Assembly (NCBI GenBank): GCA_018398765.1
Contig: JAHBMJ010000317.1
Location: forward strand, 1 to 51,120
Source: Chromera velia
Lineage: Eukaryota
DNA: 51,120 bases
Direction of reading: 5' to 3'
Notes under the pieces: model-generated
Seen by the model: only the letters and a program-made list of their open reading frames with translations
Database searches by the model: none
Told to the model about the DNA's origin: nothing
Translations under genes and position numbers: made by a program
Part shown: piece by piece, positions 1 through 51,039 of the stretch
Layout of the letters: each line of letters starts with the position of its first letter
Numbering within the stretch: position 1 is the stretch's first letter

Positions 1-85
1 TGAACTCTGACTGACAGACTTAAGGAGGTAAGGTATGGTGAGTCCCCAACTAGACTACGTTCTTAGTCTAGGAGGAAATCTGATG

Positions 86-313
86 GGTGCCAGGGGTGAC
101 TGAATCTGACGTCATCCTCAGAGGTGCCAGGGGTGACTGAATCTAACGTCATCCTCATAGGATCTGTATTTTCAATCATATGATACAGATACTTGTAAGA
201 CAGAGAAGGTTCGTTGTAGCTTATCATAATGTCAGTCTCTTAGCAGTCGTAATAACCTTGCATATGAGAGTCCGTGTGTCAGATAGTCGTCCAGATTAAT
301 CCATATTATTTCT
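86..313 (+). repeat. 5' LTR (portion alignable to the 3' LTR), containing a 37-bp tandem duplication at 86-122/123-159
   Basis: GGTGCCAGGGGTGACTGAATCTGACGTCATCCTCA...CCATATTATTTCT matches 5475-5665 with about 7 substitutions by manual alignment. Confidence 0.9.
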
Positions 314-330
314 GGTACGACGCCAGTGAG
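313..330 (+). promoter_or_regulatory. Primer-binding site (PBS) of the Copia element
   Basis: TGGTACGACGCCAGTGAG directly follows the 5' LTR and begins with TGG, the complement of tRNA CCA. Confidence 0.7.
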
Positions 331-360
331 AGTAAAGGAGGTTTGGAGTAGGCTGTGCAA

Positions 361-3300: not shown

Positions 3301-5397
3301 AAAGCGTATCACAAGTCCATCCCTGTAGCATGGCTCCAGCCAGTGGGGGATGGGAGTAGGAAGTGGCGTGTAGAGGGAATAGCACCCAATCCCATTCGGA
3401 AACAGCAAGTGCTGCGTTATTTCGATTTCGTAGACGACCATCTGCCTGCCGAGATCGAATTCCAAGTATCCCCAGGCCCCCCTCCGATTCGTGTCGGTCC
3501 GTCCGCACAGCAGCAGGGTGTTGTGAATGAGGGGGTGCCGCCAGACGCGGGTGGGGATGCACCCGCAGCCCCTCACCCTGATGGCATTCCTCCTGATGAC
3601 TCTTTGTTTGGTTCTGACCTCCTCAGAAATCCTCAGCATGAGGGGGGGGCAGAACAAAGGTCAGTGCATTTGGAATCGTTGGAGGCGCTGGCAGCCTTTG
3701 ATTTCAAGAAAGGCTCCACCAACATTCCAGCAAAGGAGGAAGAGGTGAGGGAGGCGAAGTTCAATGAGGCGATGAGAGATGAGTGGCTCCAGAACATCTG
3801 TGGGCAGGAGGTGTTTAGGAGGGCGGTTCCGAGGGAAGAGGCTAAGATGGTGATAGATCTCGGCTGGAGGCTCACATGGAAGGAGAAGGAGGCAGAGAAA
3901 GGAAAGGGGAAGGAAAGAAAGTACAGAAGTCCGTCTCCCAGTCATTCTCCTCCCACAGCAACAAAGAGAGTGCCAAAAGCCCGATGCTTCGGGAAGGGCT
4001 TCCGGGACAAGAGAAAGATTGATACCTTCACAGGTACCCCTGTCCCCGCTCTGATTTTTTTCTGCATGATCTGGGCACTCGCGTGTGCTTTGCAGATTTT
4101 TGTGGGGGATGTGAAGGGGGCGTTCCTTCAGTCTACCGACACGAATGCAGAGAGAGTTTATGCGTGCATGCCTGTGTGGATGTCTCCGATCCCAGACGTG
4201 TGCCCCTATCCAGACATGAAGCCCGAGAATTGGGAGAGAGTGAAAGAGTACGCCAGATCTCTCTTGCCAGGACAGATCCGGGAGGTCGTTCGCGGTCTCT
4301 ACGGCATGCCTGTCTCGTCCAAACTTTTTGACAATAAGTGGGTTGGGATAACGAGACGGGCAGGGTTTGAGAGAATAGAGTTGGGGATTGCAGTTGATAA
4401 AAAGAAAAATGTTCTCATCAATTGGATTGATGACGTTTTTGGCCTGATTGCTTTTGGGCAGGTTGAGAGGGTGATGCGACATCTACAGGGGGAGATGGAG
4501 TTTGGGAAAATGACGAGGCTTGACATGGCTTCATACAAATTCAAGTATGCGGGAATGGACTTTGAAGGAGACAAAGGGGAGTGCAGAGTCTCGATGTCCT
4601 CGTATCTTGAGGGGGTGGATACAAACAAACTGTTCAGAGAATACAAGATCCCTCGGAGAGGAGTGGGGGGCACGTCTTTATGCAAAGAAAAGGATTTTCA
4701 TCTGCAGGAAGGTAAGCAACCTGATCTGTCTCTGAAAGACATCTACAGCAGTGTGATCGGGTGTTTGGGTTGGGGGGGACGTCTCTCTCCTTTCCGTCGT
4801 GTGTGGTACGATATTCTTTCTCGCTATAGGAAGACACCGACCCACAGGCATCTCGCGATTGCTGTCAGAATCCTGCACAAAATCAAGAAAGATCCAGAAG
4901 GTCTGAATTTCCACCGTCTGTCTCGCTCTCCTCTTCTCAAGATGGTTTTCTTCATTGATTCCTCTCATGAGAAAGACACATACGAAGGAAGCCATGCATG
5001 GATTGCTCTTCTGGTTGATCATGCCTGGAAGCCAGGAGATGAATTGTTTAACATTTTCGCATGGCGTTCGATGCGTTTGACCGTCAAGCTGGGCAGCTCC
5101 ACAGCTTCAGAATTGGTTGGGTTTGAGCAGTGCCTCAAGCGTGTGCCTCGACTGATTTCTTTTGGCCGGAATTTTCAGAAAGACATGCCGGTTCAGTTCT
5201 TGATTGACTGTAACCCTTTGCATGATCAGTTCAGATCGGGGGTGGCAGATTCAGACACAAGGATGCAGCATGTTCTCGACTGGTGCATTCAGAGATGCAA
5301 ACAATTGTCTGCCAGTGTTGTTTGGATCCCTTGTGAGATTCAGGCAGCCATTGCACTCACTAAGCCTATTGCTTTTGGTCAATCGATCTATGATTGA
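361..5397 (+). pseudogene. Copia gag-pol polyprotein in one reading frame, interrupted by 4 in-frame stops (889 TAG, 1141 TAG, 1954 TGA, 3169 TAA)
   Basis: ORFs 355, 955, 1306, 1981 and 3181 share one frame and the gaps between them are open. Motifs: CCHC knuckle CKCCGLLGHWKPTC (1249-1290); protease MVDTGT; integrase HDRLGIH...CRTC plus [21 protein letters not shown] (DDE); RT KARCFGKGF, GDVKGAFLQ, RGLYGMP, WIDD; RNase H FIDSS, STASEL, LIDCN, ALTKP. Confidence 0.92.
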
Positions 5398-5420
5398 AGT
5401 GTGGATCATTCGCCTGTCAT

Positions 5421-5431
5421 GAGGGGGTGAG
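5421..5431 (+). promoter_or_regulatory. Polypurine tract of the Copia element
   Basis: GAGGGGGTGAG lies just after the pol stop and before a TG-starting segment leading into the 3' LTR homology. Confidence 0.65.
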
Positions 5432-5432
5432 T

Positions 5433-5665
5433 TGTGAGTTAGATTCATGACAGTCTCAGAATGGAGATGTCAGGGGTGCCAGGGGTGACTGAATCTGACG
5501 TCATCCTCATAGGATCTGTATTATCAATCATATGATACAGATACCTGCAAGACAGAGAAGGTTCGTTGTAGCTTGTCATAATGTCAGTCTCTTAGCAGTC
5601 GTAATAACCTTGCATATGAGAGTCCGTGTGTCAGATAGTCGTCTAGATTAACCCATATTATTTCT
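5433..5665 (+). repeat. 3' LTR (start inferred from PPT + TG; 5474-5665 matches the 5' LTR)
   Basis: Direct-repeat identity with 123-313; the left boundary could be 5428 or 5433. Confidence 0.8.
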
Positions 5666-7555: not shown

Positions 7556-8127
7556 TGTTATATGGTACTTTGCACTCAGTAGAAGGCTCTTGGATTCGGG
7601 GACGTTTGGATATAAAGTAAGGAAGAGCACAAAGGAGATCAGAGTTTGGAGATGGGGCAAAAGATGTGCAAGGTCCAAGCACGCATGCATGCCACCAGAA
7701 TTGGCGCGCGTTGTGGCCCTGTTACACTCGCGCGGCCCGCTTGCACACGCCCGCCGCTTGGAGGGTTGCGCCGCCTTACGCGCGACCACATTCTCACGTA
7801 CCTAAAATTGAATTCGACCATATTCTCACTGAAATTGAATTTGACTTCGATCGCGGCCTGTCGCTGATTTCGATCGCAGCCTGTTGCATGCAGCTGCGTG
7901 GCGAGCCAGAAATACCATGAAATGCCAACTTAAATTTGAGAAATCCAAAATCTTGAAATCGCGCGTTGTGAGATTAAAACTTAGTTCACCAACTCAGAGT
8001 TTCGATCAACATAATCGCATCACACCAAACTTCAACTTCAGACCTCTTTTTTATAGATTGCCTTCTCAAGAGTCAACTGACAATGAAGTTTTTATTGTAC
8101 TCCCTAGTGCCAGAGTACGACAGAACA
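7556..8127 (+). repeat. 5' LTR of the non-autonomous element
   Basis: Gap-free alignment to 8717-9288, about 90% identity by manual count; TG...CA termini. Confidence 0.93.
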
Positions 8128-8716: not shown

Positions 8717-9288
8717 TGTTATATGGTACTTTACACTCAGTAGAAGGTTTTTGGATTCGGGGACGTTTGGACACAAAGTAAAGAAGAGCACAAAGGAGAT
8801 CAGAGTTTGGAGACGGGGCAAAAGATGTGAAAGGTCCAGGCATGCATGCATGCCACCAGAATTGGTGCGCGTCGCGGCCCTGTTACGCTCGCGCGGCCTG
8901 CCTGCATGCGCCCGCCGCTTGGAGGGTCACGCTGCCTTACGCGCGACCATATTCTCACGTACTTGAAATTGAATTCGATTATATTCTCACTGAAATTGAA
9001 TTTAACTTCGATCGCGGCATGTCGCTGATTTCGATCACGGCCTATCACATGCAGCTGCGTGGCGAGCCAGAAATGCCGTGAAATGCCAACTCAAATTTAA
9101 GAAATGCAAAACCTTGAAATCGCGTGTTATGAGATTAAAACTTGGTTCACCAACTCAGGGCTTCGATCAACACAATTGCATCGCACCAAACTTCAACTTC
9201 AGACTTCTTCTTTATAGATTGCTTTCTCAAGAGTTAACTGACAGTGAAGTTTCTATTGTACTCTCTAGCGCCAGAGTACGACAGAACA
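8717..9288 (+). repeat. 3' LTR of the non-autonomous element
   Basis: Gap-free alignment to 7556-8127; TG...CA termini; followed by TSD AAAT. Confidence 0.93.
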
Positions 9289-15479: not shown

Positions 15480-16121
15480 GGGGACGTTGAGAACTGCTTC
15501 GTTTCAGTCAGATCCATGGAATCGTTTCTCACCTCCTTGAACCACGCAGACTATCAGTGAGAGGGGATAAGACAACCCGACACGTTGTGGAAGAGGTCAG
15601 GATTTCTATCTGCACGAACCTATATATTCATCCTTTCTAATTCGCAATTTGGTAACAGAAATTGTCCAAAGCGATGTCAGATCTCCTCTTCTGTTCAGAA
15701 GTGCATAAGACAGCCTTCGGCTCACTTCTTCTCACTTGTGACCACGCGTAGACGGTCAATTTCCATCGATATTCTGGTGAATAAGTGTTCTGAGAGTCCT
15801 GAGATGTCCTGAGAGATACTGCATGCATGAGTCTGCATGCATGCCGGAGCCCCTCATCGCGCGGGCATGCAGTGCATGGGTCCAATGTGTGTATGCATGG
15901 GCCCTCGTGGGCCCGCAGGCGAGCCACACCGGAGACAGACAAGTATACAGGTCGACTTCATCCCGGCCGGCTCCACCGTTTCTCGTCATTCTTTCATGCA
16001 CAGAAGACCCTTGTAGCAACACGGGTGTAAAAGTCGTGAGAGAGGAGCACCTGCACTCAAACCAGGATCCTGGCCGATTGAGCTCTTCTACTGCACTTCG
16101 GGGGAGACGGGAGAAGAAACG

Positions 16122-16853
16122 ATGGGGGTGTTGGGTGCAGTTTCCGCTGCCTTCCTGTTCGTCGTCACAGTTCATTGTAGGGCGAACTCTCACAGTCCGG
16201 GTTTTCTGTGCAGGCCCTTTCAAAGCCATGTCTCTCGGGGTAGTCTTCGGTTAAAAGGGCCTCAAAGTTTACGAGACGGCTCGAGACGGCACTTGTTGAC
16301 ATCACTCCCGTCTCTATCACAAAGTAGTCAGAACTCCCCAATTTCTGCGGAGAAGGAAGGCCTGCGTCCACATGTCGCAGCAGTGGGGGAGTTTACCATG
16401 CAAGGTGTGGATTCTCTTTTGGAAAGAGCTCAAAGGGTGTGGAGAGAAAGAGGGGGCGCCTTTCTTATACTCGCTGTGGTTCTGAGCGTGTCTCTGTTTC
16501 GTCTATGGTGCTCTGTGGGGGGTTCCGTGGTGGGTATCCCTGTAGGCGCGTTGCTTCCCCCCACAGCGGCAGCGTTACCGGGGGAAGAGCTGCTCTTCGA
16601 CTCTAAGTTCCTGTGGTCTCCTCAAACGACTGCGCTGTCTCTAGGGGAACGGATCGGGATGGAGATGACCTTCTTCGCACAAAAGTACAGGACACTGTAC
16701 AATGTGAGGCAGTTCATGACTTTGTTGGTGTCTGTTTCACTGATAACAGGGTTGTATAAATTCGGACTCTCGGCCGTGAAGTTTGTGGAGGCTCAAAACG
16801 AGCAGGTGAAGAGAGACCAAATGGATTTTATGGAAGATGACGACGATATCTGA
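16122..16853 (+). CDS. Hypothetical single-exon membrane protein with signal peptide and transit-peptide-like N-terminus
   Basis: 243-aa ATG-initiated ORF divergent from ADAT1: hydrophobic N-terminus, then an S/R-rich acid-poor stretch starting SPGFL, two hydrophobic segments and an acidic C-terminus. Confidence 0.7.
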   Translation: MGVLGAVSAAFLFVVTVHCRANSHSPGFLCRPFQSHVSRGSLRLKGPQSLRDGSRRHLLTSLPSLSQSSQNSPISAEKEGLRPHVAAVGEFTMQGVDSLLERAQRVWRERGGAFLILAVVLSVSLFRLWCSVGGSVVGIPVGALLPPTAAALPGEELLFDSKFLWSPQTTALSLGERIGMEMTFFAQKYRTLYNVRQFMTLLVSVSLITGLYKFGLSAVKFVEAQNEQVKRDQMDFMEDDDDI

Positions 16854-21535: not shown

Positions 21536-22489
21536 CTCATTCTTTGTTGTGGCACCTCCCTGTCTGCAGCCATTGGAGAGCACGGAGAATATGCAAGGGA
21601 AGATTGACAAAGGTAAGAGAAAATCGTATCCGTGCCTCGGACTCACTTGCAACAGGCTGTGAGGTCGCAGTTCGTCAGCGCGTTTCCCATTGTGTCACCT
21701 TCAATTCAAATGCGGACCGATGAGGACGGAGAATCCGAAACAGCAAATGCCTTTCTGGAGAATGGCACACTGTTGGAGAGTGGGTCGTGATTAGACAGAC
21801 AACACAGTGGCACTGTAGGTGCAGACAGAGGAAGGGAACCGAAGTCGTTCCTGTCAATACATTCAGCAACTCAGCTAGTCGAAGTGTCTGCTCAGTGCTC
21901 ACACGGAGACTATGTCATAGGCAGGTGTGCGCCTGTAAACAGCTTGAAACCAGGTGTCTTCTGCCTCCGAACGACCATCGGTCAGTCAGAGACACATGCA
22001 TCGCTTGACTCCGGCGGCTTGAGGGATGCTTGAGGGGCACGTAAAAGAAACTTTTGTTCGGCGGGTCTCCCTTTAAATTCAGCTTCGCACGCGCGGATCG
22101 CATCGGCGCGCGGTCGAGTTTTGACTTTCCCAGCGGTCCCCGAAAGCATGCAGGCGCGTCTGCACGGCGCATGCAGCTATAGAGACAGATCATGACAGAT
22201 AAAAAAATTTCCCGAATGTCCACTTCAATCCCCGGCCCCCTCTTCGTGTTTCTTGCCAGGTGGCGGAAACGGTGAAGTGAATTTTTGAAACCCCGAAGAG
22301 TCCATTGTCACCTGAGCTTTCTGCTTCTTTGCCCTCTTGAATCACTCAAAAGCCCGCAGGACGAACTGTAAAGTCGTTTCTGATTTGGCTCCGCGTGTAC
22401 CGTCGTCTGTTGCCTGATAGTAGTTCACTTCAAAAACAGGAATCCTTTCCCGGAAGGCGCGACCCTTAAAAAAAAAGTATTGACAAAAG

Positions 22490-23185
22490 ATGGATTTCGA
22501 CGGACCTGCTACAGGAGAGTTCGACGCTGCCCCAGGTGGATTTGACATCAGTGATGCTCTTGGGGGTTCTCCGGGAGGGGCGGGGGAGGACTCGCCCTCT
22601 CCGGATCAGCAGCAGGCTCCTGCTGCAGCTGACTGGGGTGCAATGGATGATATGATGGGGTTCACTGAACCCGCACAGCACGCAAATGGTCCGAGCAGCT
22701 ACGAACCCCCCGCACCAATGGAGGGGGTTGCAGCGGAAGAGGTGGAGAAAAACGGTACGACGCAGTATTTCAAGATGGACTCTGCGAATGATCAGAGCCC
22801 TGCAGGTGCAGAGGCAGCACAGAGGGCAGCAGAGAAGACGATTGAGGATGAGGAGAGGGAGAGGCAGGAGGCGTTGCTTCTCGAAAAATCTCATGCAGAG
22901 GAAAAACAACGCACAAAAGTGAGAGAAGAAGCAAATGAGTACAGGGAGAAGTGGTATTCTCAGAGACGGGAAGCAATTGAGAAACGAAAGAAAAGCAACA
23001 GGTTGGAGGAAGAGGAGACCTCCGCCTCCAGAGGGGAGGGCACGTCTTCAGACCCCACTGCTCCGTGCAACTGGGAGCGCACGCTCTCGTACATCGACTT
23101 CTCAAAGGAGAAGCACAACAGAGACACCTCGAGAATGAAGACGATTCTGTTCCAATTGAAGAGTGGGGGATTGCGGCGACCCTGA
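22490..23185 (+). CDS. CLC: Clathrin light chain
   Basis: Intronless 231-aa ORF with acidic N-terminus, coiled coil REEANEYREKWYSQRREAIEKRKKSNR, and hallmark C-terminus NWERTLSYIDF...RDTSRMKTILFQLK. Confidence 0.92.
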   Translation: MDFDGPATGEFDAAPGGFDISDALGGSPGGAGEDSPSPDQQQAPAAADWGAMDDMMGFTEPAQHANGPSSYEPPAPMEGVAAEEVEKNGTTQYFKMDSANDQSPAGAEAAQRAAEKTIEDEERERQEALLLEKSHAEEKQRTKVREEANEYREKWYSQRREAIEKRKKSNRLEEEETSASRGEGTSSDPTAPCNWERTLSYIDFSKEKHNRDTSRMKTILFQLKSGGLRRP

Positions 23186-33598: not shown

Positions 33599-34286
33599 CC
33601 TGCCTGCCTGCCTATGTCTGCATGTTTGCATATCTCTCTGCCTTTCTACTATTCTACCAGTGTTATTTTCTCATTTTACGGGTCTGCCTATTCTGCCGTT
33701 TGACATATCTGCCTGCCTGCCTGCCTACCTACCTGTCTGCCTACATGCCCACCTGTCTGCGCCGGGTGATAGCTGGGGCATAAGAGCAATGAGTTGATGG
33801 CTGTGGGCAGAAAAAAACGAGAACCAAACATGAGAGAGAATACAGTGGGAAGAGGCCATACATTGAAATTAGAGCACTGAACTGAGAAGACTGAGATTTA
33901 ATGAGACTCGATGTGAGAGCTGACGTGAGCATGCCAAAAGGCTCGGCGAAGAGGCAATTTAGATGACAGTAGGAATGATGTGGCGTACAAAGGTGCAATA
34001 AAAACAGTGAAACAAAATAGGCAGGACAGTGGATTGTCATGTAAAAGCACGCAGTAAAACCGATTATTGTGGGATCTAGCGGTGACAAGATGAATAGAGA
34101 TTGATATATATATGTTGAGTGAATGCACGATCGAATATGAGTAACAGACCTGCATAAGTGAACATATTAGCGCAGTGAACTAACACGACCACATCATTTT
34201 GAGCAGTTGAAGAGCTGCAGGATACATGCAGACAATGAGGATCATGCTGGATCGTGCAATAACATAGGCAAGCGGGAAGGAGAGAA

Positions 34287-35212
34287 CAGGAAGGTGGGGG
34301 CACCTTTGTTCTTTTAGGGATCTGTCCAGCAGGGAGGAAGCTGAGGGCACCTTTGTTCTTTTAGAGATCTGTCCAGCAGGAAAGAAGCTGAGGGCATCTT
34401 TGTTCTTTCAAGGATCTGTTCAGCAGGAAGGAAGCTGGGAGCACTTTTATTCTTCTTAGGATCTGTCCAGCAGGAAGGAAGGTGGGGGCACCTTTGTTAT
34501 TTTTTGGATTTGTTCAGCAGGAAGGAAGGTAAGGCCACCTTTATTCTTTTTAGGGTCTGCTCAGCAGGAAGGAAGCTAGGGGCACCTTTGTTCGATTTCT
34601 GATCTGTCTTGCAGGAAGGAAGCTGGGAGCACCTTTGTTCGATTTCTGATCTGTCTTATAGGAAGCAAGGTGGGGGCACCTTTGTTCGATTTCTGATCTG
34701 TCTTGCAGGAAGGAAGATGGGGGCACCTTTGTGCTTTTACGATCTGTCCAGCAGGAAGGAAGGTGGGGGCACCTTTGTGCTTTTAGGGATCTGTCCAGTA
34801 GGAAGGCAGCTAGAGGCACCTTTGTTCTTTTTTAGATTTGTCCAGAAGGAAGGAAGGTGGGGGCACCTTTGTTCTTTTGGGGATGTGCGCAACAGAAAGA
34901 AAGGTAGGGGCACCTTTGTTCTTTTTAGGATCTGTCTAGCAGGAAAGAAGGTGGAAGCAGATTTGTTCTTTTACGGATCTGTCCAACAGGAAAGAAGGTG
35001 GGGGCACCTTTGTTCTTTTAGGGATCTGTCTAGCAGGAAGGAAGGTGGGGGCACCTTTGTTCTTTTTAGGGTCTGCTCAGCAGGAAAGAAGGTAGGGGCA
35101 CCTTCGTTCTTTTAGGGATCTGTCCAGCAGGAAGGAAGGTGGGGGCACCTTTGTTCTTTTCAGGATCTGTCCAGCAGGAAGGAGGCTGGGGGCACCTTTG
35201 TTCTTCTAGGAT
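34287..35212. repeat. 47-bp minisatellite, about 20 tandem copies
   Basis: Consensus approximately GCAGGAAGGAAGGTGGGGGCACCTTTGTTCTTTTAGGGATCTGTCCA; CACCTTTGTT recurs at ~47-bp period (34301, 34348 ... 34583, 34630, 34677). Confidence 0.97.
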
Positions 35213-35986
35213 ACCCCATCTTGAATTGACTTGACAATCGCATGACCTGTTGGTCTTTTTTTTGCTTTCTTCAAACCTTTTTATACCCATAATGCGTCTT
35301 GTTGCTCACGATACTAGATACGGTGCTAGCATATGTTATCTCAGGCTGTATAGCTCTACTTATAGCTCTAGTTTACTTTGGCTCTAGTCATTTTAACTAG
35401 ATTTGCTGATAAATTTTGTTTAGATAAGTGCATCTGAAGTTTTAAGTGTATCAAACTGAGTATCAAAGAGAGAAAAAAAACTAATTTTGAATGAAATTTA
35501 TCTTCAATTTTTGTTTTTTTGCCGTAAGAACGGCTAAGGTACTAGGCCTGTAACTAGGAGAAAAAAATCTTGGTAGGAAATTCTAAGCTCTAGTGTATAA
35601 GGTCTATAGCCTACGCTATAGTAAGAGCAAGAGAACATGCACTGTCATACAGAGTTTGTAGGCCCAGAAAACTATTTATGCATAATCCTGGGTATTAATC
35701 CACTAATATAAGTGATAAGTGATTTAGTGCTAAAAATTAGTGGTGCCGTTGAACATTATCGCCGTTTTGTCTTGTAGTACCTCTATAGAATTAAGTGCTG
35801 GAGAAGTTCAACGTCCACGCCGCTGTGTCATTCATGCAGTTGCTAGCAAAGTTGCATCATGTGAAAAAAACTAGAAAAAAAAATAACCCTTTTCAGTTAC
35901 TTTTTTTTCCTGTGATACGGCTTGCTAAAATTCAAGTCATCTAACACCTATATACAAATATTTGTTTTATTGTTTTTAAACATTTT

Positions 35987-37347: not shown

Positions 37348-40300
37348 TTATGCCGCAACACGTCTTTTCTTGTCGTGCCTCTTGACATCTTTCAACACAG
37401 GCGCGGAGGGCGCTTCGAGAGGGCCCCGCTTCAACTCGTCCAAAGGACGACGGACCCCCAGGGACCTTCTCAAATTCAAATACGCCAGTCGACCTGCGTA
37501 CCTCGAAAGAAGGGAAGCAACGGATCGTGATTGCCTCTTCCCACCTCCCCGCCTTTCTCCTGCGACCGCGGCTGAAGCGCGTTCGGAACCCTCTCCGACT
37601 CCTTCCCCGAAAAACGTTGAAAGTCCTCCTGCTTGTCCCACAAAAGAGAAGACTTCCTTCTTTGCCGTCTCTTTGACTGCACTTCTAGGGTCCAAAAGCG
37701 AGCCTCTAGAGGCCTCGAGTATCTTCTCCAAAAGAGCAGATAACTCGGCCTTGGACTGTGCGATTGCCAGCGCTGCCCCTGAGCCCTCTCGTCCCTTTCC
37801 ACTCTTCTTCACAGACTTGTGATTGCTTGCAGCCTTTTCTTTCTCTGCCTTCTTCTCTTTGTGTGCCTCCTGTCTTCTTGCCTTCGTGGCAAGTTCCCAC
37901 CTCTTGAATCCCATTCTCTTTGCTGCATCTGCCCTCACGCGCTCTCTCGATGCCCTCATCTGAGAGGACGAATGGGCAGAGTGGACATGGGAAGAGGGAG
38001 CAGCCTGCACAGACAGAGAGCCCGTAGGAGCAGTAGAGGCATCAGTCACTGTTCCTCCTCCTCCTCTGTGTCTTCTCCTCCTGCGTTCCCTGCCTCTGGT
38101 CACCGCTGAGTGAATGTCTTCCAACACACGCACAGAAGAGAAAGAGTGCAGACCCGATGCGGCAGCACTCAACAGAGCAGACTGCAGAACCGAGTCTGCC
38201 TTCTTTGAGGACTCTAAAGTGGCCAGATGAGCGTGTTCTCCTGACATCTCGCTTTCCATCGTCTCTGCCTGCAGGGACACGAATGCCTGCTCTTCTCCTA
38301 CTTCCTCTCCTTCCTCTGCATTCCCAACGCCGGCACTCGAGGAAGGAGCCAGGAAGCTCTGCTGCTGGTGTTGGTGTTGCGCGTCACCCCGTCTCTTCGC
38401 GCTCGCTTTCTTTTTCTCTACCGTTTCCTGCGGACAGCAAAGAGAAAGCGATTTCTCTGATTCTGAGGGAACGTCTGCTTATTCGCAAAAAAAAAAAAAA
38501 GGCGAACAAGAGAGAACACACATTTCGATGTTGACATTCGTGACGTTCCTGTTTTGGAGCAATTCGAATCAAAAACGAAGGAAGACAGACAGAAGACAGA
38601 ACGAACGAACGCACCTGAACACCCGCATCCTTCCTCTCAGCCCCCTGAAGAGCTCCCTGCAAAATAGTCTCTACTTCCCCTTCACTCCCGTCAGACCCAG
38701 AAGGAACCCCGGGGACTCTCCCTGCGCCCTCCATACCCTCCTCCTCCTCCTCAGGCTCAATTGGAGGGAAGGTCTCTGTTCCTTCGGGCCCGCTCATCTC
38801 GTCAGAGGGGTAGAAAGTCTCGAAGTCCTCGTAGTAGCACACCGCCGTGGGCTCGTACAGGGAGGCCACGAGGTAGAGGCCGCCCTTGGACGTGGAGGAA
38901 ATATCAAACAGGGTCAGTCTGCATGCATCAACAGAGGGGGAGAATATTGTACGGTGGTAGAGCCATTACGGTGTTCCTTGGAAATCGTTTTGACTTCAGG
39001 GGAACGTTAGAGCGCACAACAGATTGATGCCGGGACATCAAGTCTTGGTCTGAAAAACCATTCATGCATACATGTCAACTTCAATCGGGGTGCCGAGCAC
39101 AGATGAAAATTGGAAAGCGAAGATGCCGCAGTGAGGCGGCTTGAGAATCAGTCAAAGTGCAGCTTTAAAAGATGGTACCGATGTTTGCAAGACACTACAT
39201 CTCCACTCACAAAGCATCCACTGAGAGAGGCAAAGAGTGAGAGACAGAGAGAGAGAGAGAGACTGACGGAGGAGTAGGAGGGCCAAACTCGGGGGGCCCG
39301 TCCATCACTTCTGTCGTGTATTCCTCTGGAGGTGGGGGAGGCATCTCTGCTTCCTCTGGGAGGTAGCCGGGCTCAGTCTCCAACTCTGTCTCTGGTTCTA
39401 CTTCTGTGATGGTCGTCGTTGTGGTTGTGGTTGTGGTCGGCTCTTGGGTAGTTGTAGTTGTTGTGGTGGTGGTGGAGACGGGTGGGACTGTGGTTGTCTC
39501 AACAAGAATCGGTTCTGTTGTTGTGGAAATCGGAAGTGGTTCCAGTGTGGTGGAAGCCTCCGTGGTTGTGGTTGTGGTCGTGGTCGTTGGTTCAGTCGTG
39601 GTGGTAGAAAGGAGAGGCACTACTGATGGGTAAGTAGCTGAGGCTTGGTCAGTGTCTGATGGTAAGTTCTCCCCGTCCACTGCCTGTGTTTCTGGGGTGC
39701 TTGTGCTGGCGTGTGAGCGCACAGTAGCTGTCTGAGAGGAAGAGGGGTTTGTGGAGTGTTGAGGCGATGACACATCTGAGGATTGTTCTGAGGCTGGCGT
39801 GTCGACAGAGAGGCTTGTAGGGATCTCCTCGGGAATTGTATCAGATCCAATGACTTTCTGGTGTGAGGGGGGGAGGGGTTCACTGCCGGTTGTGGTGTCT
39901 TTTGAATCTGGGCTGAGACTCGGGCTGTTTGCATTTGTTGGGGAAGACAATTTGCTTTTGTCCTCTTTCAATTCCCTTGGGGGCTCTGGAGCTGTTGTCT
40001 TTGGAGTTGTTTCTGTTGTGACTTCCTCCTCGGATTCTGTTTCTCCTGTAGCATCTACTGTCACAGAGAGTTTCGAAGAAGAAGAAGAAGAAGAAGACGA
40101 CTGTGCGTTCTCAGGTTGGTTGTCCTCTTCCTCTTCTTCCTCTTCCTCATCTGACGCCTCCTCTCCATCCTGAGAACCTTGAGAAGAGGAAGGGGACTCA
40201 TCCGTCTCCCGCTCTTCTTCTGAAGGGAGGGCGTGAGTGTCTTCAGAGGGCACTCCCCTCTGTCGAAGCTCTGTGAAGGCTGATGCAGTGGAAGCCAAGG

Positions 40301-42054
40301 GAGTCTCAGAGACCGGAAGGCTAGACAGGATTGAAGGAGAAGAAGGAGCGGAGCCTTTGGAGGCGACCCCTAGTTTTTCTGAAGCTTCAGCAGCAGAGGG
40401 TATGAGCGAGATGACGCTGTCGGTGTGATGCTGCTGCTGTTGTTTACTCACTGCACTCACAGCCGCATTCGGAATGAAAGGCACGTGTTGCCCACCCATC
40501 TGGCCAGAGGGCGACCTCATCTCTTTTGAAGCCATGGAAGGTGCCTGGGAGTCCATAGAACCCCCCCCCATCTCTGAGGAGATTGAGGGCGGCCGCAGCT
40601 GCTGCAGTGTCTCCTCCAATTCCACGGGGCCCCAGTTCGTCGTGTTGAGGTTCTGTCGGGGATTCTTGCTGGAGCCGTACAGCTGCAAGCAGGCAGGTGT
40701 GTGTTGTATTTCAGGCAAGTGGCGTCGATGTCACGCGATTAAATCATAAGATATGTAGTGTCATTGACAAGTAATTATTCAAATGACGAGAGTTATTGTC
40801 TCTGCCAAAGTCCACAAGGAGACGAAATCCATGAAAGGCACATATTTTGCTGATCGCATTTCCACTTGGGAAGGGAAAGGTTATCACAATTAAGACTGGA
40901 CGGGCAGAGAACCCACTTTGATTGCAATTTTCTGTCTTGCCCCGGTGGGTGCCGTGAGGATTTCGAAGAGGTCGTTAAGCATGTCGGCTGTGTTGCGGGA
41001 CTTCATCAGGAACTCCAGCATCTCCTGCATGCTTGCGGTGGGTGGACAGACAACATATCTATCGATCGATGTATCAATTGCTCCTGTCCCCCTGCACTTA
41101 TGCCTCTATGCTGGGGGTTGCCGGGAAATGCATCAAAGTTCCACCGAGCACCTCCGTAGAAACAGTGAAGCGGAGATCTAAAAGAAATATGCTCCTCCCG
41201 TCCTAATCGGAGGTACGTTCGATAAGAAAAAGGAACTTGCCACAAAAGAAAATGCAGAAAAAATGTTTGGGCGCATCAAACGTTATTTCTCTCTCACCCC
41301 CCCATGGACGAACGAACCATTTCTTCCTCAAAGCAGAGACTGTGCGTCCAGATTCTCCTCCACCACCTGCACACGCACGTGCACGACAATGTGACGAAGA
41401 TTCTCAAAGGTATCGAGAGAGGTTTCTCAAAAGGGAGCTCCTGTACAAATGAAAAGAGGGAGATCCCGGGCGCTTTCAAATACCAACAGTCACACAGACA
41501 AAGAAACCTTCCTACGCATACCGTTCTGACCTTCCCCTTCTCCCGACAGACCTCTCAAAATGGTCCCCGAGTGTCATGTCGATAGGGCTGTTCGTCATGG
41601 CAACCTCCTGAAAGGAAAGCAGCAATGGTAGAGGGAAGACATCAAGCAAGGCACAATAAAGGGGGGTTCATGTCAAGATGAGCAAGCCAAGATCTCTCTT
41701 GAGAGGGGCCAGACACTCTGTATTAGTTGAAACAAATCACTTCTTTCTGTCCATGTCCACTCAGACTCCGATGCAAGAAAACCAGAACCCCTAAGCAGGT
41801 CACTGATGTTCCGTGAGTTTCCGTTGATTGTCGTGATTTCAATCATCTTCCTACAAGAAAAAATTTTGCTCCAACTGACTGACGGCCTTGAGACGGAACA
41901 CGTCCTCTTCAGACAGTCCCCCCTCTCCCTCTGAGTCCACTCCTCTCCACTTCTTCCTGAGACTCCCGAGGAGATATTCGATCTCTCCCTCCACGCGGTC
42001 GGGGTCAACAGGGTCGTCGCCTCCTCTGTCGGGGCCCTGCATGAGAGAGAGAGG

Positions 42055-42120
<66 letters not shown>

Positions 42121-45100
42121 AAGAGGTCAAACTCGAAATGCCGCGAAAAGAAGAGAAACGAGATGCGCCAAGGGAACAGAGTGTGAGCACGCCGAGAAAG
42201 ATTGTGAGAAACATAAGAAAGAGAGACTGCGTCAAGTGACGGGCTGAAATCAAAGTAGACAAGCAGACGCAATTAATAAATTCGATTGACATGCAACATT
42301 TACACGAGCCACACAACTTGGAGTCTGGACAGGAAAAAAAGAAGAGCTGAGCATGGAGCCATATAATTTCGTCAAGAAAGCCGACGGCACGGGGGCCGAA
42401 GGAAAGACCTGTACGACGACCCGAAGTTCCGAGACATACATTTACTTTGTGTATGAAAAAGAATTCTGTATGAACGTAAATGTATGGGCCGACCTGTACG
42501 ATGACCCGAAGTTCCGAGACAGGGTAAGTCTCCCCAGCCATCCCGCTGACAACATACCCCAACTGCTTCTCTGTCCTCAGGTACTCAAACACGGGAGTGC
42601 TCAGCATCGACCCGATCTGCGAACAGATACAAGTGAAATATTCTTCTTTTGTTCAAAATGGTTCGACGAAAAACGGATCTCCCTCGGCTTTCCACAATTT
42701 GAACGAACGCTTTGTATTTATGTGGGTGAGGAAACACATCAAACAGCTTGTGCTTTTCTCCACCGATGCACCCTGCCTGCTCTTCCTTTGCTCCTTCGTC
42801 TCTCTCTGTCTATCTCGTTCTTTGTCTGACCATTTCAATCACTGCCTTCTGTGCTCTGACCATTTTAATCACTGCCTTCTGTGCGATGTCCGCAATGCCC
42901 CACTGGTAGACTGCCAGTGTGGCATGGTCCAGGTCTCCTGGAATGGGGTTGGGAATGCGGACGTCCAGAGGGGGGGAGGCGTCTAGGGCCTGCAGGGAAG
43001 TGAGTAGGGAATGGCATTGGTGTCAGGACAAAGAGATGAAAAGTGGCGAGCAGCTTTCCATCGAGAGCGACAAAAAGTGGGTGATCAGGCGAAAGGTGTC
43101 GGGAGGGGCAGTTCGGAAGATCAGAAGAGAATCTCACCAAGTCAGAGGAGACTGAAGACACGGATGTGCAAGAGCGTGAAAAAAAACATTAAACTTATTG
43201 CTCGACCGCGCACTACCCTAATGGCCGAACAACCTTTTCCCTTGTATTTAGGCTTTCTGGCATGTGAACCGCAAACTAGCTGGGACCGTTTAGTTTGTAT
43301 TTCACCTCCCTTGTCCCATCTGACTGACAAAGAACTGCACCGCTTCCGACTGTGCAATTGGCACATGATGGATGGCCCTGGAGGCTTCCTCTGCAAGTCT
43401 GACGGCGTCGTCTGATCCGATGTCCCCAATCATCAGGGCGTCAATGAACGAGAGGGGGCAGATCTCTCTCACAAACTTCACGTAGGTGCTGAAGGAGGAG
43501 GCCTCCGGGTCCAGCAGGAGCTGCAGACAAGGGGACAAACACTCAGTTTTTTATACAGATGATGAGCCTCATATCAGGTCCTGCAGTGGAGAGTGCATCG
43601 ACAAAAGCTGTGTCCGGTAAATCACAATGACTTTTTCCGCGTCAAAGAGTGTTCGCAAATGGCGTAAATGTCCCGGAAAGCTAAGGAAAATTGCGGGCCG
43701 ATCTCTGTACTTGTAACTCTATCCCAGGCAGAAAGAGAGTCCTCTCTTGCAAGTGATTCAGAGGACCTTTTTCAGAAACGCTGTGTGTTGGGTCTGGACG
43801 AGTCAACGCAAACGTGTTTGTCTGCGCACCTCTTTCTTCTCTGTGTCCGTGAAGACGTTAGGTCTCTCAACCGTCTGGAGTGCCTTCATTGCGAGTTGGT
43901 AGGGCTGACTCTCGCTGTAGTCGGCCAGGTCAATGAGCAGCTGCATGCGAAGGAAAGAGAAGGAGGGGAAGGGGGTGGGATGGAAAAGTCGTGAGAGACG
44001 AAGAGGAAAAGGCAGAAGACGAAGGAGACATAAAGAGAGATAGAACAGGGGGGACATCGCGAAGTGAAACGGCTCTGTACACTTGGGGCAGGGTCCAATT
44101 GGGGAAAGGGCTCTCCCAAAACTCAATTGGGTTCAGGTGCACATTTGGGAGCCCTGATATTCATAGCACATGGCGAGCAGAAATGCAGGTGGACAGGCAG
44201 GCTTCCAATGCTTCAATGGCGTTGCACACACGCACAAAAAGCTGTTCACCCAAAGCCGCTCACATGCACTTTCGATCGATCCTTCTGACCTCCTCTCTGA
44301 CAAGTTCAAAGACTTTCTGAGTCTCCGTAATGGTGTCCTTTGCCTTCGCCTTTTCCTCGACGAAGCTGCTCTCTCCTCCCTGAGGTGCCAGAATCTCTTC
44401 ATCTGTCTGACCCCTCATGATGGGATCAAACCCAAATTCCTTCAGAGTCTTCACAAACACGTGCTCGAAGTGTTCACTCCAAGCCTGAAAGAGAAGAAAA
44501 ACAAGGAGGGGTTCTTCGTGTTGAAAGGGAATAAAGAAGTGATCGATGAAGGGCGAAAATTGGGCAGCATGCCCAAATCTTATACTTCTATGATCAAAGA
44601 ATTTCTTTTTTCTTCCAGAAGGGTGCTGCATGGGCCATTTCTCTATCGTCCTTTCTGCTTGTCTGCCCTCTCTAAGAGGGATAGAAACGAATAGACAGTC
44701 TCATTGAAGATGTATGTAGCTGGTCCACGCTTTGATAAAGCTACACACTTGATGTCTCCCCCCCTCCCTTGAACTGACCGCCACTCTGATGGAGAAGCAC
44801 CCTGCCTCAAACTCTACTGCCACCTCCGTAGGGGTCCCTGTGAACTCCGCGAGCTTCCTGTCCAGGAGACGCTCTATCACCAGGGCATGGAGCTCTCCCA
44901 TCAGGGCAGACCTGCAAAGAGGGAGGGAGCAGGTAGGGTGCAAAATGAAAAACAACTTCCAGATTGATGCCCCAAACAGAAGAGACAGTACTGTTCCTTG
45001 TAGGAGCAAAGAGCACACCCTTTTTCAGCTCCTCTCCCATCATGTCCCAACAGCTGAATGTGCACCAACCTCACATATTCGAAACATCAGTTTCACAACA

Positions 45101-48100
45101 CATGCAGTCCGAAAAAGGAGCGTCTCGACGCGACTGACAGAGGCGTCTGTTCCTTCTGCGTGAGACGCAGAATGATGGAGCTGTGGACCCTCGGCTCGTT
45201 GAAGGGTCCCCCGAAGCCCCCCTCCTCCACCACACCCGCACCTGGCACAGGGCCCTTCCACCAGACAGAGAGGCCCGCTGTGTGAAGGACAGGGCAAGGG
45301 GGGGAGAGGCGATTCTGGGGACAGGCGTCGTCCTCTACGCGGGGGGTGACTGCAGAGAGACGGGTCGGGACATTCGTCAAGGGCCCCGGCATGACCACCT
45401 CAGGGGTGAGATGGTGCTGCACACCGTCGGGAGGGGCCCCGGTAAGGATCTGGCTGTCTGCCAATCCGATCTCTCTGTACTTCACATCGTAATGGTCGAA
45501 GTGGGTCCAGGGGGCCAGGGGGGTGTCTGAGGCCGAGGCGTTGGCGTGGGGGTTGATGAGGAAGACGTTGGCGTTGACCTCCCTTATTCTGGACATGACG
45601 TCAGTGACTAGGGAGGCGTTGTAGGAGTCTAGATGAAGGAGGGAATTCGCAGTGAAGGCCATTTGAGGAGGGAAGATCAAAAGGTTTCCAGAAGCCTCGG
45701 GAAGATCTGACATGATGCTGGGAGGGAGTCCTGTCCTCTCTGCGATGCGCATCTCTGCGTCTGTCATGTTGACGACTGATTGGAGGAAGGCCAAGGTTGG
45801 GTCTGTCTCTGCGTCTGCGATCCTCTCCCTCCACTCGAGGATGAACGCGTTGAGAGTGTCCAGAATCTCGCGGTGGCTTTTGATGCCCTGAAGAAACAGA
45901 GTAAAGAGTAGAGAGTAGAGTGGTCAAGGAAAAATGAAACCGAACATGACAAAATCTGATGCAGTTGGGCACATAAGAAGTCAACTTCAATCTGCGTGGT
46001 TCTGGGACACTGGCTGGATTAGTTTGCTGAAGAGGCGGAGTGAATTGTGCTGAAACTGCTGCACACAACCAGACACAAACTTCCTCTGACTTTCGCTCGC
46101 CGACATGTTCAACAAACTACCCAGAAGCGTCCGATCGACTTGGAACAAGATGTGCCGCATGGATAAGCGAACAAAAAAAGACAAACACTGACTACCTGCT
46201 TCACCCACTAGCTGTCTTACTGACCGCCTCGGTCAATCCGATGGACACGTAGAAGAGAGTTGCTGCTGAGGTTGTGTCGTCATCAGCAACGACGTCAAAT
46301 GCGAGGCCTGTAGTGGAATGGATCGGTGGGAGGAGGGAAGGGAAAAACCAGACAACAGAACAAGTGAGGAAAAAAGAGCAAGCTGGGTGCAAGAAGAAGG
46401 GAGGAAATTGGAGGAGGGAAAGCAACTGTGAAGTGGAATGTCTCTGCATGGGAATCAACTGATGACTCTGTCTGAGTTTGCTCGAGGAAGCCAGACGACA
46501 TTTCTGCATGATGCATGGAAGCGCTGCATGACGAGCGGACCTTTCTTCTGCAGGGTGTCGATCAGGCCTCCTGCCCCAGGGTGAGTGAGGAGATGAGTGA
46601 TGTACGTCAGGGGCCTCCAGGGGGATTCCTGTACAGAAAGAAACGGAGTGAGGGGGTGGACGCGTAGACGAATACATAAATGGCTTGGGGGTATTGGAAA
46701 TCCGAAGACATTCGTCGGAAGATAGGAATTGAAAAGGCAAAAGAACGAAGAAAACAGAAAATTGGAAGACGGGTGGGTTGACTGCGGCTTTCTTCCCTTT
46801 CCAGGATCTACCCTGATGGTTTTCTCTTCTGTCGTCTAAAGATTCACCTTCAGAAGCGACGGGAGGGCGTACATAACGGTCAGAGTCGGTTGCCAGCCGT
46901 ATTTGGCCTCCACCTCAACAAACTTTCCTGCATTCGGGTAAGACGCAATAGAAGAGAAGGGCTCGGATGTGCATGAAAAACAACCCGGAAGGGCCTGTTA
47001 GTGGCAGCACCGTCTGTCAGACTGGGTTTTTGACCGAGGCAAGATCAGTTTTGAAAGAAGGATGGGTTGGTTCCGCATGTTCGTTCTAGCTCCTCATATG
47101 GATAGATGGAGAATGCATCATCGAACTTCGATCAACCCCCTCAGACAGACAGATACCATGCATTTCTTCCTCTCAGTCTTTTGCCCCCCTTCTGCCGAGG
47201 AAATCTCTGCCGTGTCCATTCAATAGCCGTTCCAGACTTTTTAATTCGTTTTTCCCAACCCTACATGCATCTGCCTACTCAGGGTCGTGTATTTGCTTTC
47301 ATACAGAATTCTTTTTCAGGGAGCAAATGAATTCTGTATGAAAGCAAATGCATGCATTTTCCCAACCCTACATGCATCTATCTGCCTACCCAGGGTAGTC
47401 CGGCTGAATGGCAGGGGGTCAGTCGGGTTGACGGGATCCTGGCAGACTCCAGATCGGATGGTGCCGAAGACCCTCTCGATGATCTCCCGTAACTCGTTCA
47501 TCGGACGGTCGTTCCTGCATCATGCACATGCAGGTACAAGCAGAATGAATCACGGAAATGCATGCAAGTACACACACGTATACACACAGGTAGACCGACA
47601 AAGTACTGAGCGTGTGAACACACCAGCGAGATGCTCCATTATTTTTTGTACGGCAAAGGGGTAATACGTTATGAAGAAAGGAGGGCTGACACCGAGTAAG
47701 GAAAGCGGCGAGACAAGGAAGAGGGATGACCGTGGAAGGGTGTGACAGAGAGACAGAGAGAGAAAGAAAGACTGAAACGGAGAGAGCAGCAGAAGAAAGT
47801 GAAAGTTGAAGAGAGAGGCACATAGCACGAAGTTGAGAGCAGACGCACAGACCTTATGACCAGGCTCATTCTGTCAGCACAGTAGTACTGATCATGGAAC
47901 TGGTGGAGTCTCTGGGGAACCTCCGTACCCTGTATGGGGGCGGGGGGTAGATAGGGGGAGGGAGGGAGGGAGGGACGGAGGGAGGGAGATGAGACACCAT
48001 GCACGCATGGCAAGGCACCACAAGGAAGGATGAATTCAATGAACAGAATAAAGTCGAGCCTCCGGAAGACTTGTGTTGTTTTTTGTGCATGTGTCTCTTC

Positions 48101-49673
48101 GCTCGCTCGTATGTTGCATGTTTCATCTTCACTTTGTTGACCCAATCAGATGACTTAATTTCTTCTCACCAGAATTCTTCCTTCTAAAATTATTCAGAGG
48201 ACCATCATGCTGCGGTTAATTCTTTCTGTCCTACACTGACTGATTGACCGACCATCTCTTTCGGCTGAATCATCAGAGACTGCAGTGAGCCTGTGGAGAA
48301 TTTTCTCATCGGACTCCCTGGGTGTCCGTCTGCTGGTTGGGCCAGGCTCTGAGAGAGTGCTGATATCAGCCTTCTCTGAGAGGGCATGTTCTTTTTGTGC
48401 TCTGAGTCCACTGCGTAGACCTCTCTCTCATAGGCCTCAGGAAGCATCAGAGGCTCGTTGATCATGTCGGCCAAGCGTTCCAGACTGGCCTCAAGGTCAT
48501 CCTCCGTGTTTGCGTCTCCATCTGCAGTCCCACTCGCAGGGGTGCCGTCTCCTTCTGTCTCCTCTGTGTCTGGTGGGGAAGAGGGGAGAACGGACAACTG
48601 TCCGAAGTAGGTCGTCTGCTCGGCTGTCGTAAACGCGTTGTCGGAGCCTCCGTGGGTGCTCATCCAGTCGTCGAGACCTGACATGGAGTTGAAACGCCGG
48701 GATCCGAGAAAGAGCTGCAGGAGGAGGGAGACACACATCGATCGACACAGCATGAAGAGCTACTCACTGCAGGGTTATGTACACACAATCAAATGGCAGC
48801 TAGAACACGGAATCATAACGTACATTGAAGTTTGATTGATCATCGAAAGGGCCTTTGGGGCAGAATTTAGCGTGCACTGTCTTGTGAAAAAGTGCTCTCG
48901 AACATTGCTGCGGTGCAAGTGACTGTACTTCTGAGGAGCGCAGGGGGAGATATACATATAGCATGTCTGAAAGCATTGCCCACCATGTGTTCAGTCAAGT
49001 GAGCGAGTCCTTGAAGGTCTTCAGGGTCGCTGCAGAAAGAGAGAGAAAGACAGAGGGTGAGGGGGAGGGAGGACAAACGAGAGAGATGAGAGAATGAGAG
49101 GCTGAAAATCCACACAACGAGAGAAGCTTCTTCGCTCAATTCCCACACACACACACATGCACATGGTGTCTCTCCCCTTCATGCATGGGTCATGTAGCAT
49201 CCACCTGACTGTACACCACGAAAACACTATTCTTTTGTGGATGAAACATTGTGAAAACTAATACATTGGGGCTAATGTGACCTCTTTACCTCAGTGCACA
49301 GATGCGAAATGATACATTGTCGATGCATGCATGCTGGAGCTTGAGAGCATGGAAAATGACTGACCTACCTGTAGTAACCAACGCCCACTGTGAGAGAGTA
49401 TGAGAGGTCAGGAGATGTGGGGTCCTCAATGGTCAGAACCTTCAGACCGTTGGCGAGGACGAAGCATTCATACTCTGCAAAGTCCCCTGAAGGCTTCTCT
49501 ATGTGAAATGGACCTGAAGACACGCAGCTGCTGCTGGTGCCCACCAGGCTTCTTCTGCCTAGCGCAAACTCCCCACGACCTTTCTCGAGTTGTGTTGCCA
49601 CACTGATACCCAGAGAACAAATGCACAACAAAGAGGAAAGCCCCCACAAGGGAGGAATGGCAGAACTGGGCAT
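37348..49673 (-). CDS. Secreted M16A insulinase-like zinc metallopeptidase with long Thr/Ser/Glu/Pro-rich C-terminal extension; many exons
   Basis: Exon 1 (49673-49369): signal peptide + EKPSGDFAEYECFVLANGLKVL...VGVGYY. Exon 2 (49029-48984): DPEDLQGLAHLTEHM (inverted zinc motif HxxEH). Exon 3 (48714-48253): LFLGS...GGSDNAFT...EREVYAVDSEHKKN...KFSTGSLQSL. Later FHDQYYCADRMSLVI, FEYLRTEKQLGYVV, RQKIAIK|LYGS, a mucin-like exon at ~40682-39266, and terminal exons to the stop at 37348. Linkage of the last exons is inferred from splice-site-like boundaries. Confidence 0.9.
42043..42118. repeat. (GA)n microsatellite in an intron; similar GA/CA/CT tracts at 11822-11877, 26291-26340, 29150-29229, 51043-51120
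   Basis: Direct reading. Confidence 0.95.
42435..42486. mobile_element. Putative miniature hairpin element, copy 1 (degenerate), between 31-bp direct repeats
   Basis: 11-bp terminal inverted repeat CATACATTTAC/GTAAATGTATG; shares the 21-mer TGAAAAAGAATTCTGTATGAA with the reverse strand of copy 2; flanked by repeats 42406-42436 and 42491-42521. Confidence 0.7.
47286..47356. mobile_element. Putative miniature hairpin element, copy 2, between 36/40-bp direct repeats
   Basis: 26-bp inverted arms at 47286-47311 and 47329-47354 (24/26 match) with a 17-bp loop; flanked by repeats 47250-47285 and 47357-47396. Confidence 0.75.
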
Positions 49674-51039
49674 GATCACCAACTCAGAGAGGGACTGTTA
49701 GACTGGAGGCTTGAATCGTCTCTCTTCTGTTCTGTTCGATTCCCCTAAGTTTGTTATGACAAAAGCATTCGACCTCCTTTCAATGAGATCAGTCGATGAC
49801 GAGACCCACACAAGATCGTGGAGCTTTGGGCCTTCGTTCAGATTGAGTTTTCGTGTCGCGAGCTTGAATGCCTTCAAGGTCGGTCAAAGAATTACGCTGT
49901 ATCGCCTCGGGGGGCAGCTCAGCTCTGCTGAGATCAGCCGAGAGGCCCTGAGATCGCACGCACTCGCATAACGCATTTTTTCATTTTCGGGGGGGNGGGG
50001 GGGGGGGGGTCGCTTCTTTCTCCGTCTGTCACGGTGTCGCCCGAATTCCAAAATGTGCCCCTCAAGCAACTCGCACGGAGCCGCGATCGCATTACTTCGG
50101 ACATGCGTGCCCCTCAAGTAACTCGCACGGAGTTGCAAGTGCATTCGCGCGGTCCCGAAAAGCATACTTCGTGCGCGTTGCCGTGGCCCAAGCCCCCGAT
50201 GGTGTGCATCAATCAAATTTGCAGACCCCCTAAAGGGCCCCCCGAGGCACTCACCCAACTGGTTGGGTGTATCTCGTACATATATAGAGCTTCATGAAAT
50301 TTAGCTGCCATGCATGCACTCGCGTCACTGGGAGTGCACCCCAGATCTGACGTAAGCAAGCTTGCGAACGGCCCCGGAAAGCAAGAAAAATTACAACTAG
50401 TTCACCATGATGCAGTGCCACGCTATATGTAGCTGATTGAAGCCACGCAGAAAGTTGCACTCACATACAGTCAGGGCTAGACTCAGGTAGAGTCAGGGTG
50501 GGGGCATTACTAGGCGTTACCTGGCATTATCCAGACGTATGAAAGATTTAATATGTTTTTCTTAAAAAATATGGTAGAATGAAGACTAAATTTAAGAAAA
50601 TTTAAATAAATCTGTGACATAATTAATTTTCTTATATGAACTATCCTTTATTTTTTGTATAAAAAGCCGAAAAAATGTTTATAAATTAATTAAATGGATC
50701 TGAAATTTACAGGGCTAAATCTATAAACAAATTTATATACAAATTTTATAACTTGTTATATCATTGACTTAGTAAAAAATTTAATGCAAAGACTTAATCA
50801 ATAAATAATTCTTTAATGCTTACTATGGTTTGAACATTGGTTTCATTTATTATGTGGCAATCTTCAAAGTATGTTCACTGCGTTAAGTTCATCTGTTTCA
50901 AGATCAACGACCATCATCTCATTGCTCTTGATTTGTAGACAAAGATCCATAAAACGCGGGACGGAAGGAGAGAAAGAAGGGGTCTCTCTCTCCCCCGTTC
51001 TCGCTTTCTCTCTCTCTTTCTTTCTCTCTTTCTCTATGT

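Follow-up and report, generated by a model that had tools for sequence, protein, structure and literature searches.

The M16 metalloprotease gene and its surroundings

The analysed window comprises 51,120 nucleotides and carries on its minus strand a gene for an M16 insulinase-family metalloprotease (39210..49697), the outer limits of which were placed provisionally from open reading frames. Pfam matches were obtained for four of 12 open reading frames, and matches to insulin-degrading enzyme were found as well. The C-terminal part is probably rich in threonine. A 507-codon open reading frame downstream of the M16 exons (39210-40730, minus strand) is rich in Ser, Thr and Glu, contains poly-Thr runs and had no match in Pfam, and is probably the mucin-like tail of the protease. 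Upstream of the gene lies a 26-nt direct repeat with a 26-nt spacer (50055-50132), the spacer being unrelated to the hairpin family described below.

In contigs of two runs (X3 and X4), ten segments of the stretch 42150-47700 that read CT..AC on the plus strand are skipped, and the runs were for this reason taken as RNA. Across 11 introns, ten of them from these contigs and the eleventh with a predicted acceptor, 715 codons remain open. The donors of the gene (42037-47389) have weak exon ends, read GTCAG in six of 11 cases and carry a G at position +5 in ten of 11. The spliced contigs belong to another strain (eight exon differences are listed) that may itself be free of the inserts described here, and they locate the donors, not the splicing of the insert-bearing allele.

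Apart from the protease gene, the window contains an LTR retroelement (74-5665) whose LTRs differ at seven of 191 letters. By eye, its open reading frames look Copia-like, with zinc knuckles, a protease and an integrase followed by reverse transcriptase and RNase H motifs; none gave a relevant Pfam match, which indicates a divergent element. A 572-nt direct repeat of 90% identity (7556-8127 and 8717-9288) contains an older 33-nt tandem duplication in both copies, and a tandem array of about 20 copies of a 47-nt unit (82% matches) lies at 34194-35290. On the plus strand, a single-exon clathrin light chain gene (22484-23185, PF01086) and an open reading frame whose start looks by eye like a signal peptide followed by a transit-like segment (16017-16853; no match in Pfam or homolog searches) were found. 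Protein searches gave no match other than the window's own protein. The sequence TGCATGCA occurs in 16-fold excess, and this excess and the gene style might hint at an alveolate host, perhaps a chromerid alga.

Two inserts within duplicated splice donors

The first insert (E1, 47286..47356) is a 71-nt hairpin whose 26-nt arms enclose a 17-nt loop. The arms differ at two positions over 26 nt, the calculated DNA fold amounts to about -24 kcal/mol, and the element had the top score among the six inverted repeats that passed a scan of the window, four of the five others being of low complexity. Its right terminus is complete (..ATGCATGCA) and its left terminus is short by 2 nt. The element is flanked by a 36-nt copy (47250..47285, plus strand) and a 40-nt copy (47357..47396, plus strand) of the same target sequence, which differ by a single substitution and an indel of 4 nt (ATCT), so that the direct repeat around a palindrome of about 70 bp with a 17-bp loop described in an earlier note on this DNA is present as 36 versus 40 nt around 71 nt. 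In the 40-nt copy, which has the extra ATCT, lie 7 exon letters together with the donor (47390|47389). Read on the minus strand, the 36-nt copy forms a downstream decoy donor with a G>A exchange at position -1. Element and decoy copy are enclosed in a 462-nt intron (46928..47389, minus strand), the joint of which is seen in both X3 and X4 contigs. The same note had proposed that the duplication holds the end of an M16 exon and its GT donor, and this was confirmed by the contigs, which skip 462 nt ending at 47389, and by the Pfam assignment of the gene.

The second insert (E2, 42435..42486) is 52 nt long and has a single arm, of 33 nt, with a terminal inverted repeat of 11 nt; at each end it stops 2 nt before the majority terminus of the family. 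Its donor-bearing target copy (42487..42521, plus strand) contains the donor at 42494|42493, where the RNA pieces stop (at 42493) and which gives an open frame; the decoy copy (42394..42434, plus strand) consists of 33 nt and an 8-nt indel at 42398-42405, and its decoy donor GTCTTT is without a G at +5. The duplication measures 31 nt ungapped and 33-36 nt with the one 8-nt indel (one or two letters are ambiguous at each end), and it is made up of 26-28 exon letters and the donor. The enclosing intron has 457 nt (42037..42493, minus strand), with the donor derived from RNA pieces and the acceptor, which lies beyond the stretch compared with the runs, predicted from sequence and frame. A related insert of the same architecture in an unrelated target had been reported at a distance of 4.8 kb. 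The target sequence is indeed unrelated, although it belongs to the same M16 gene and likewise spans a donor, whereas the architecture is shared in part, as E2 does not form a full hairpin.

Between E1 and E2, the arms show 3-5 mismatches in 26 letters, whereas the two copies of each duplication are separated by just one substitution and one indel, which points to two separate insertions of similar age. A third arm was absent from the window in a scan that allowed up to 36% mismatch. When low-complexity matches and two repeat arrays were left out, five non-simple local direct repeats were counted in the 51 kb, of which two enclose a member of the hairpin family, and chance was thereby ruled out.

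At both inserts, the upstream donor copy keeps the reading frame open; use of the downstream copy would run into a stop at E1 and shift the frame at E2, so an intact protein needs both inserts to be spliced out. The decoy donors are weaker than the upstream donors: the decoy of E1 has lost the G at -1 that is kept in nine of 11 donors, and that of E2 is missing the G at +5 kept in ten of 11. E1 and E2 are both intronic, as had been suggested for E1. The proposal of intron growth held insofar as the two introns are longer by 111 and 85 nt, but no intron was created.

X1 and X2 are DNA runs, from both of which the assembly may have been built. In these runs, E1 is covered with 0 differences by two contigs overlapping by just 26 nt in the left arm, and it is therefore bridged by no single contig. 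E2 is crossed with 0 differences by one contig in each run, a contig of 5,222 nt being among them. A local misassembly or allele collapse around the repeat might be considered for E1, as the 26-nt overlap lies in a multi-copy arm and the two runs may not be independent of the assembly. The two copies of each duplication differ from one another, both runs have each of them joined to its element with 0 differences, and E2 lies inside a single contig, all of which argues against an artefact. An artefact is considered very improbable.

A dispersed family with ragged termini

A stretch of 5.5 kb was matched by 389 records of X1 and 382 of X2, some of them from the locus itself or from microsatellites. 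The summed depth was 30.4 (X1) and 17.1 (X2) over most bins and peaked on the arm at 10,480 and 6,404, an excess of about 345-375 fold that serves as a rough guide and not as a copy number, and that suggests roughly hundreds of copies. The contigs of both runs show many copies with variable middles, so a dispersed multi-copy family, as predicted in the earlier note, does exist. In other copies, left and right arms are joined by differing middles of 7-26 nt, some copies being short like E2, and substitutions cluster at 47319-47327, which corresponds to the loop. Head-to-tail arm pairs also occur. The loose ends of the copies are heterogeneous, i.e. the flanks differ, and their consensus reads TGCATGC- at the left end, from 14 contigs in each run, and -CA at the right end, from 13 in each, which amounts to TG..CA. 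The majority terminus is TGCA..TGCA; with the outer 2 nt taken as lying outside the element, it is CAT..ATG. Many ends are ragged and 1-4 nt short; eight to nine contigs stop 2 nt short, as do the left end of E1 and both ends of E2.

The family is MITE-like, with conserved arms of TG..CA type and internal deletions. Its members in the window are short and non-coding (52 and 71 nt) with inverted termini of 11 and 26 nt, and copies are many and dispersed. A target duplication of 2-11 bp, as expected for MITEs, was not seen at either window copy, where it measures 33-40 nt; a 4-nt duplication of TGCA is a less probable reading. MITE finders that expect 2-11 bp would miss such long duplications. 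Ultra-short MITEs of the MADE1 type reportedly share with the family the two arms with a short spacer, the high copy number and the variable internal deletions, whereas their duplications are said to be short and fixed (TA for mariner types), in contrast to the 33-40 nt of E1 and E2. It is likely that E1 and E2 are internally deleted, non-autonomous DNA transposons (MITEs) of a family of inverted-repeat elements 50-70 bp in length.

Neither E1 nor E2 has a TGCA site at its target junctions. Among the matches listed, both flanks could be read at two other copies (X3 records 4 and 8); compared by eye, neither of these has a duplication of 2-11 nt. Intact duplications of up to about 28 nt were excluded for record 4, and one of about 10-38 nt for record 8, where a duplication must be at least 39 nt long or absent; the two records fit a long duplication or none. 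The TGCA end is damaged on at least one side in all four copies for which both ends are known (E1, E2 and X3 records 4 and 8). Contigs that end about 30 nt past the element (X3 records 5 and 8, X1 record 6, which equals X2 record 13, and X2 record 15) were rejected as evidence for long duplications, because a toy graph with k=31 yields the same shape whether the duplication has at least 31 nt or has 4 nt and lies in a repeat of which empty copies exist.

Searches for relatives and for an enzyme gave the following picture. No transposase was found in the window. A pattern scan of metagenome and viral contigs found the family at 0 loci, and two isolated 22-mers in a prokaryote collection, both without a second arm, were taken as chance matches. 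In Rfam, the best of four matches was mir-4081, scoring 30.3 bits where the threshold is 70, as might be obtained with a generic hairpin. The literature, as covered outside Repbase and subscription journals, held no description of the family or of terminal-inverted-repeat (TIR) elements that duplicate splice donors. A table of transposable elements in Chromera gives 6.3 Mb of non-autonomous class 2 DNA, with no family detail in the part cited here (PMC4501334).

Origin of the long duplications and their position at splice donors

Duplications of 30-40 bp around a TIR element had been called atypical. They do lie beyond the range of 2-11 bp, but the claim was overstated, as IS481EU, IS1202, IS1549 and IS1634 are precedents. 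For IS481EU of parabasalids, duplications of about 4, 15 and 25 bp were described, and for IS1202 of 24-29 bp, in steps corresponding to helical turns (about 4-6, 15-17 and 24-29 bp) (PMC10045372). For IS1549 and IS1634, they range from 8 to 514 bp (PMC2266710). The sections cited give no explanation, by their own account, of how some DDE transposases come to duplicate 15-29 bp (PMC10045372, PMC2266710). The hairpin family resembles the IS481EU, IS1202 and IS481 elements in its short TIRs (mostly <50 bp there), ends of TG..CA type, non-autonomous families and long duplications (PMC10045372). It differs from IS481EU in that the duplications of E1 and E2, at 33-36 (or 40-44) nt, are above any given in the cited text (PMC10045372), the ends are ragged, the elements have just 52-71 nt, and the terminus is TGC and not the signature TNT..AYA / TGT..ACA. 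IS481EU elements are transposons of parabasalids, to which the present host, judging from its gene style, apparently does not belong. With IS1549 and IS1634 of Mycobacterium and Mycoplasma, the family shares TIRs and long, variable direct repeats of unexplained mechanism (PMC2266710); those elements are bacterial, autonomous and 1.5-2 kb long, and the account cited mentions no link to splice sites.

The flanking duplications are likely to be the mark of an undescribed miniature transposon that would be inserted by an enzyme cutting the two strands unusually far apart. About an even chance is given to the more specific reading that a DDE transposase acting in trans inserted E1 and E2 through nicks about 33-36 nt apart. 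Two nicks on opposite strands at this distance, biased to DNA at 5' splice sites of the M16 gene, would be followed by fill-in that duplicates the exon end and the splice donor. The transposase would be similar to those of IS481EU and IS1202, with a duplication one helical turn past the ladder of 4, 15 and 25 bp. The insertions would survive through use of the first donor, with element and decoy being spliced out, and both decoy donors would have been weakened later. DDE insertion was favoured because two distinct source copies have long duplications, their junctions are not TGCA, and none of the four copies with both ends known has a clean short duplication. The lengths of 36 and 33-36 nt would match the next class of the ladder (n=2) if both indels are taken as later insertions; if the indels are deletions, the lengths become 40-44 nt and this fit is lost. 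Ragged ends speak against this reading, as they are not predicted by precise DDE strand transfer; the head-to-tail arm pairs and the TGC terminus count against it as well. If a eukaryotic family had hundreds of copies and made duplications of about 35 bp, it would lengthen the ladder and provide a large natural sample for the helical-turn idea.

Duplications of comparable size also arise in the window without a hairpin element. An empty tandem duplication of 30 nt (42825..42884) spans the donor at 42861|42860 and consists of 24 nt of exon and GTCAGA. Its second donor, at 42830, is identical, and use of this donor would add ten in-frame codons. The homology at its junction is imperfect, as is typical of slippage; the duplication may be an excision footprint or an aborted insertion, and ordinary slippage explains it equally well. 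For comparison, an empty tandem duplication of 35-37 nt (86..157) lies in the 5' LTR of the LTR retroelement and is absent from the 3' LTR. Each of the two carries one substitution, so that they are like the duplications of E1 and E2 in size and apparent age. This similarity supports a second explanation, which is regarded as somewhat unlikely: the family would be conventional MITEs, which may insert at TGCA and duplicate these 4 nt, and E1 and E2 would be filler captured when the host repaired staggered breaks, a process that would also make the empty duplications of 30-37 nt. Breaks with 3' overhangs do yield small tandem duplications through fill-in and end joining (PMC8355091). In addition, the ragged ends of the elements keep mere remnants of TGCA, and in the majority consensus TGCA flanks both ends, with an ambiguous origin from element or target. 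Random capture does not predict that two of four such duplications hold one family, in two distinct source copies, although the family has a minute share of the genome. Likewise, a precise 4-nt duplication does not predict the damage to at least one TGCA end in all four two-ended copies.

A preference for exon-intron borders had also been proposed. At the 11 introns of the M16 gene, with low-complexity matches filtered, duplications span three of 11 donors and none of 11 acceptors, and none lies wholly within an intron; one acceptor comparison that scored 11 was due to an unrelated internal 11-mer. The chance that an intronic event spans a donor is 0.10-0.13 for each event (about 0.11), which gives p of about 0.013 for the two cases other than the discovery case E1. 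E2 and the empty 30-nt duplication thus add two cases in favour of the preference, but all three events lie in one gene, and no donor-spanning duplications were found in the other genes of the window. Family sequence is also present in RNA-type contigs at other loci, which shows that targeting is not strict. A stronger version, in which the enzyme of a eukaryotic family is guided to 5' splice sites by splicing-linked chromatin or RNA, sets its two nicks about 33-36 nt from each other, duplicates exon end and donor with every insertion and leaves tandem donor pairs, some of them in frame, after excision of the element, is judged unlikely; if true, the family would be a mobile generator of alternative donors.

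Introners of Amoebophrya, Micromonas and Aureococcus are likewise small TIR elements at exon-intron borders of protists (PMC7789003, PMC12130899). According to the parts of these reports cited here, an introner is the intron itself and has direct repeats of 3-5 nt (PMC7789003, PMC12130899), whereas E1 and E2 sit 4-33 nt inside introns next to a duplicated donor and gave rise to no new intron. Provided that the donor bias holds, introns could lengthen and tandem alternative donors arise in a way that differs from that of introners.

Elements of the CRE clade insert into spliced-leader exons with target duplication, and an exceptionally long duplication was described for R9 (PMC3636483, PMC5814959). 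CRE, SLACS and CZAR are similar to the inserts in that the target, a donor-bearing exon and in their case the spliced leader, is duplicated; they are kilobase-sized non-LTR elements with one fixed target, in contrast to a TIR element in three unrelated targets. The duplications of CRE1 and SLACS are reportedly 29 and 49 bp long. This precedent would fit a further, distinctly unlikely explanation, by which a non-LTR retrotransposon whose second nick lies far from the first copied the hairpin through RNA. The family would then be a retro-mobilised MITE or a minimal SINE, and target-primed reverse transcription with template jumps would account for the long variable duplications, ragged ends and head-to-tail arm pairs. 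This explanation is also consistent with the presence of family sequence in the RNA-type contigs. With 52-71 nt, the elements are very short for a SINE, and neither the poly-A nor the simple-repeat tail of SINEs and retro-DNAs was found. DNA transposons moved by L1 do exist, but retro-DNAs in the part of the publication cited are without TIRs and peak at a duplication of 8 bp (PMC11195612), whereas the hairpin family has the same inverted terminus at both ends.

A motif CAGGGT(A)AGTC, which resembles a donor on the antisense strand, was observed at 42520-42530 and 47391-47400, at the same-side boundary of the E2 and E1 targets. Ten of 11 letters are shared, and the motif occurs nowhere else in the window. 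This post hoc observation (p 0.02, or about 0.07-0.10 after four comparisons) speaks weakly for insertion of an RNA-copied hairpin.
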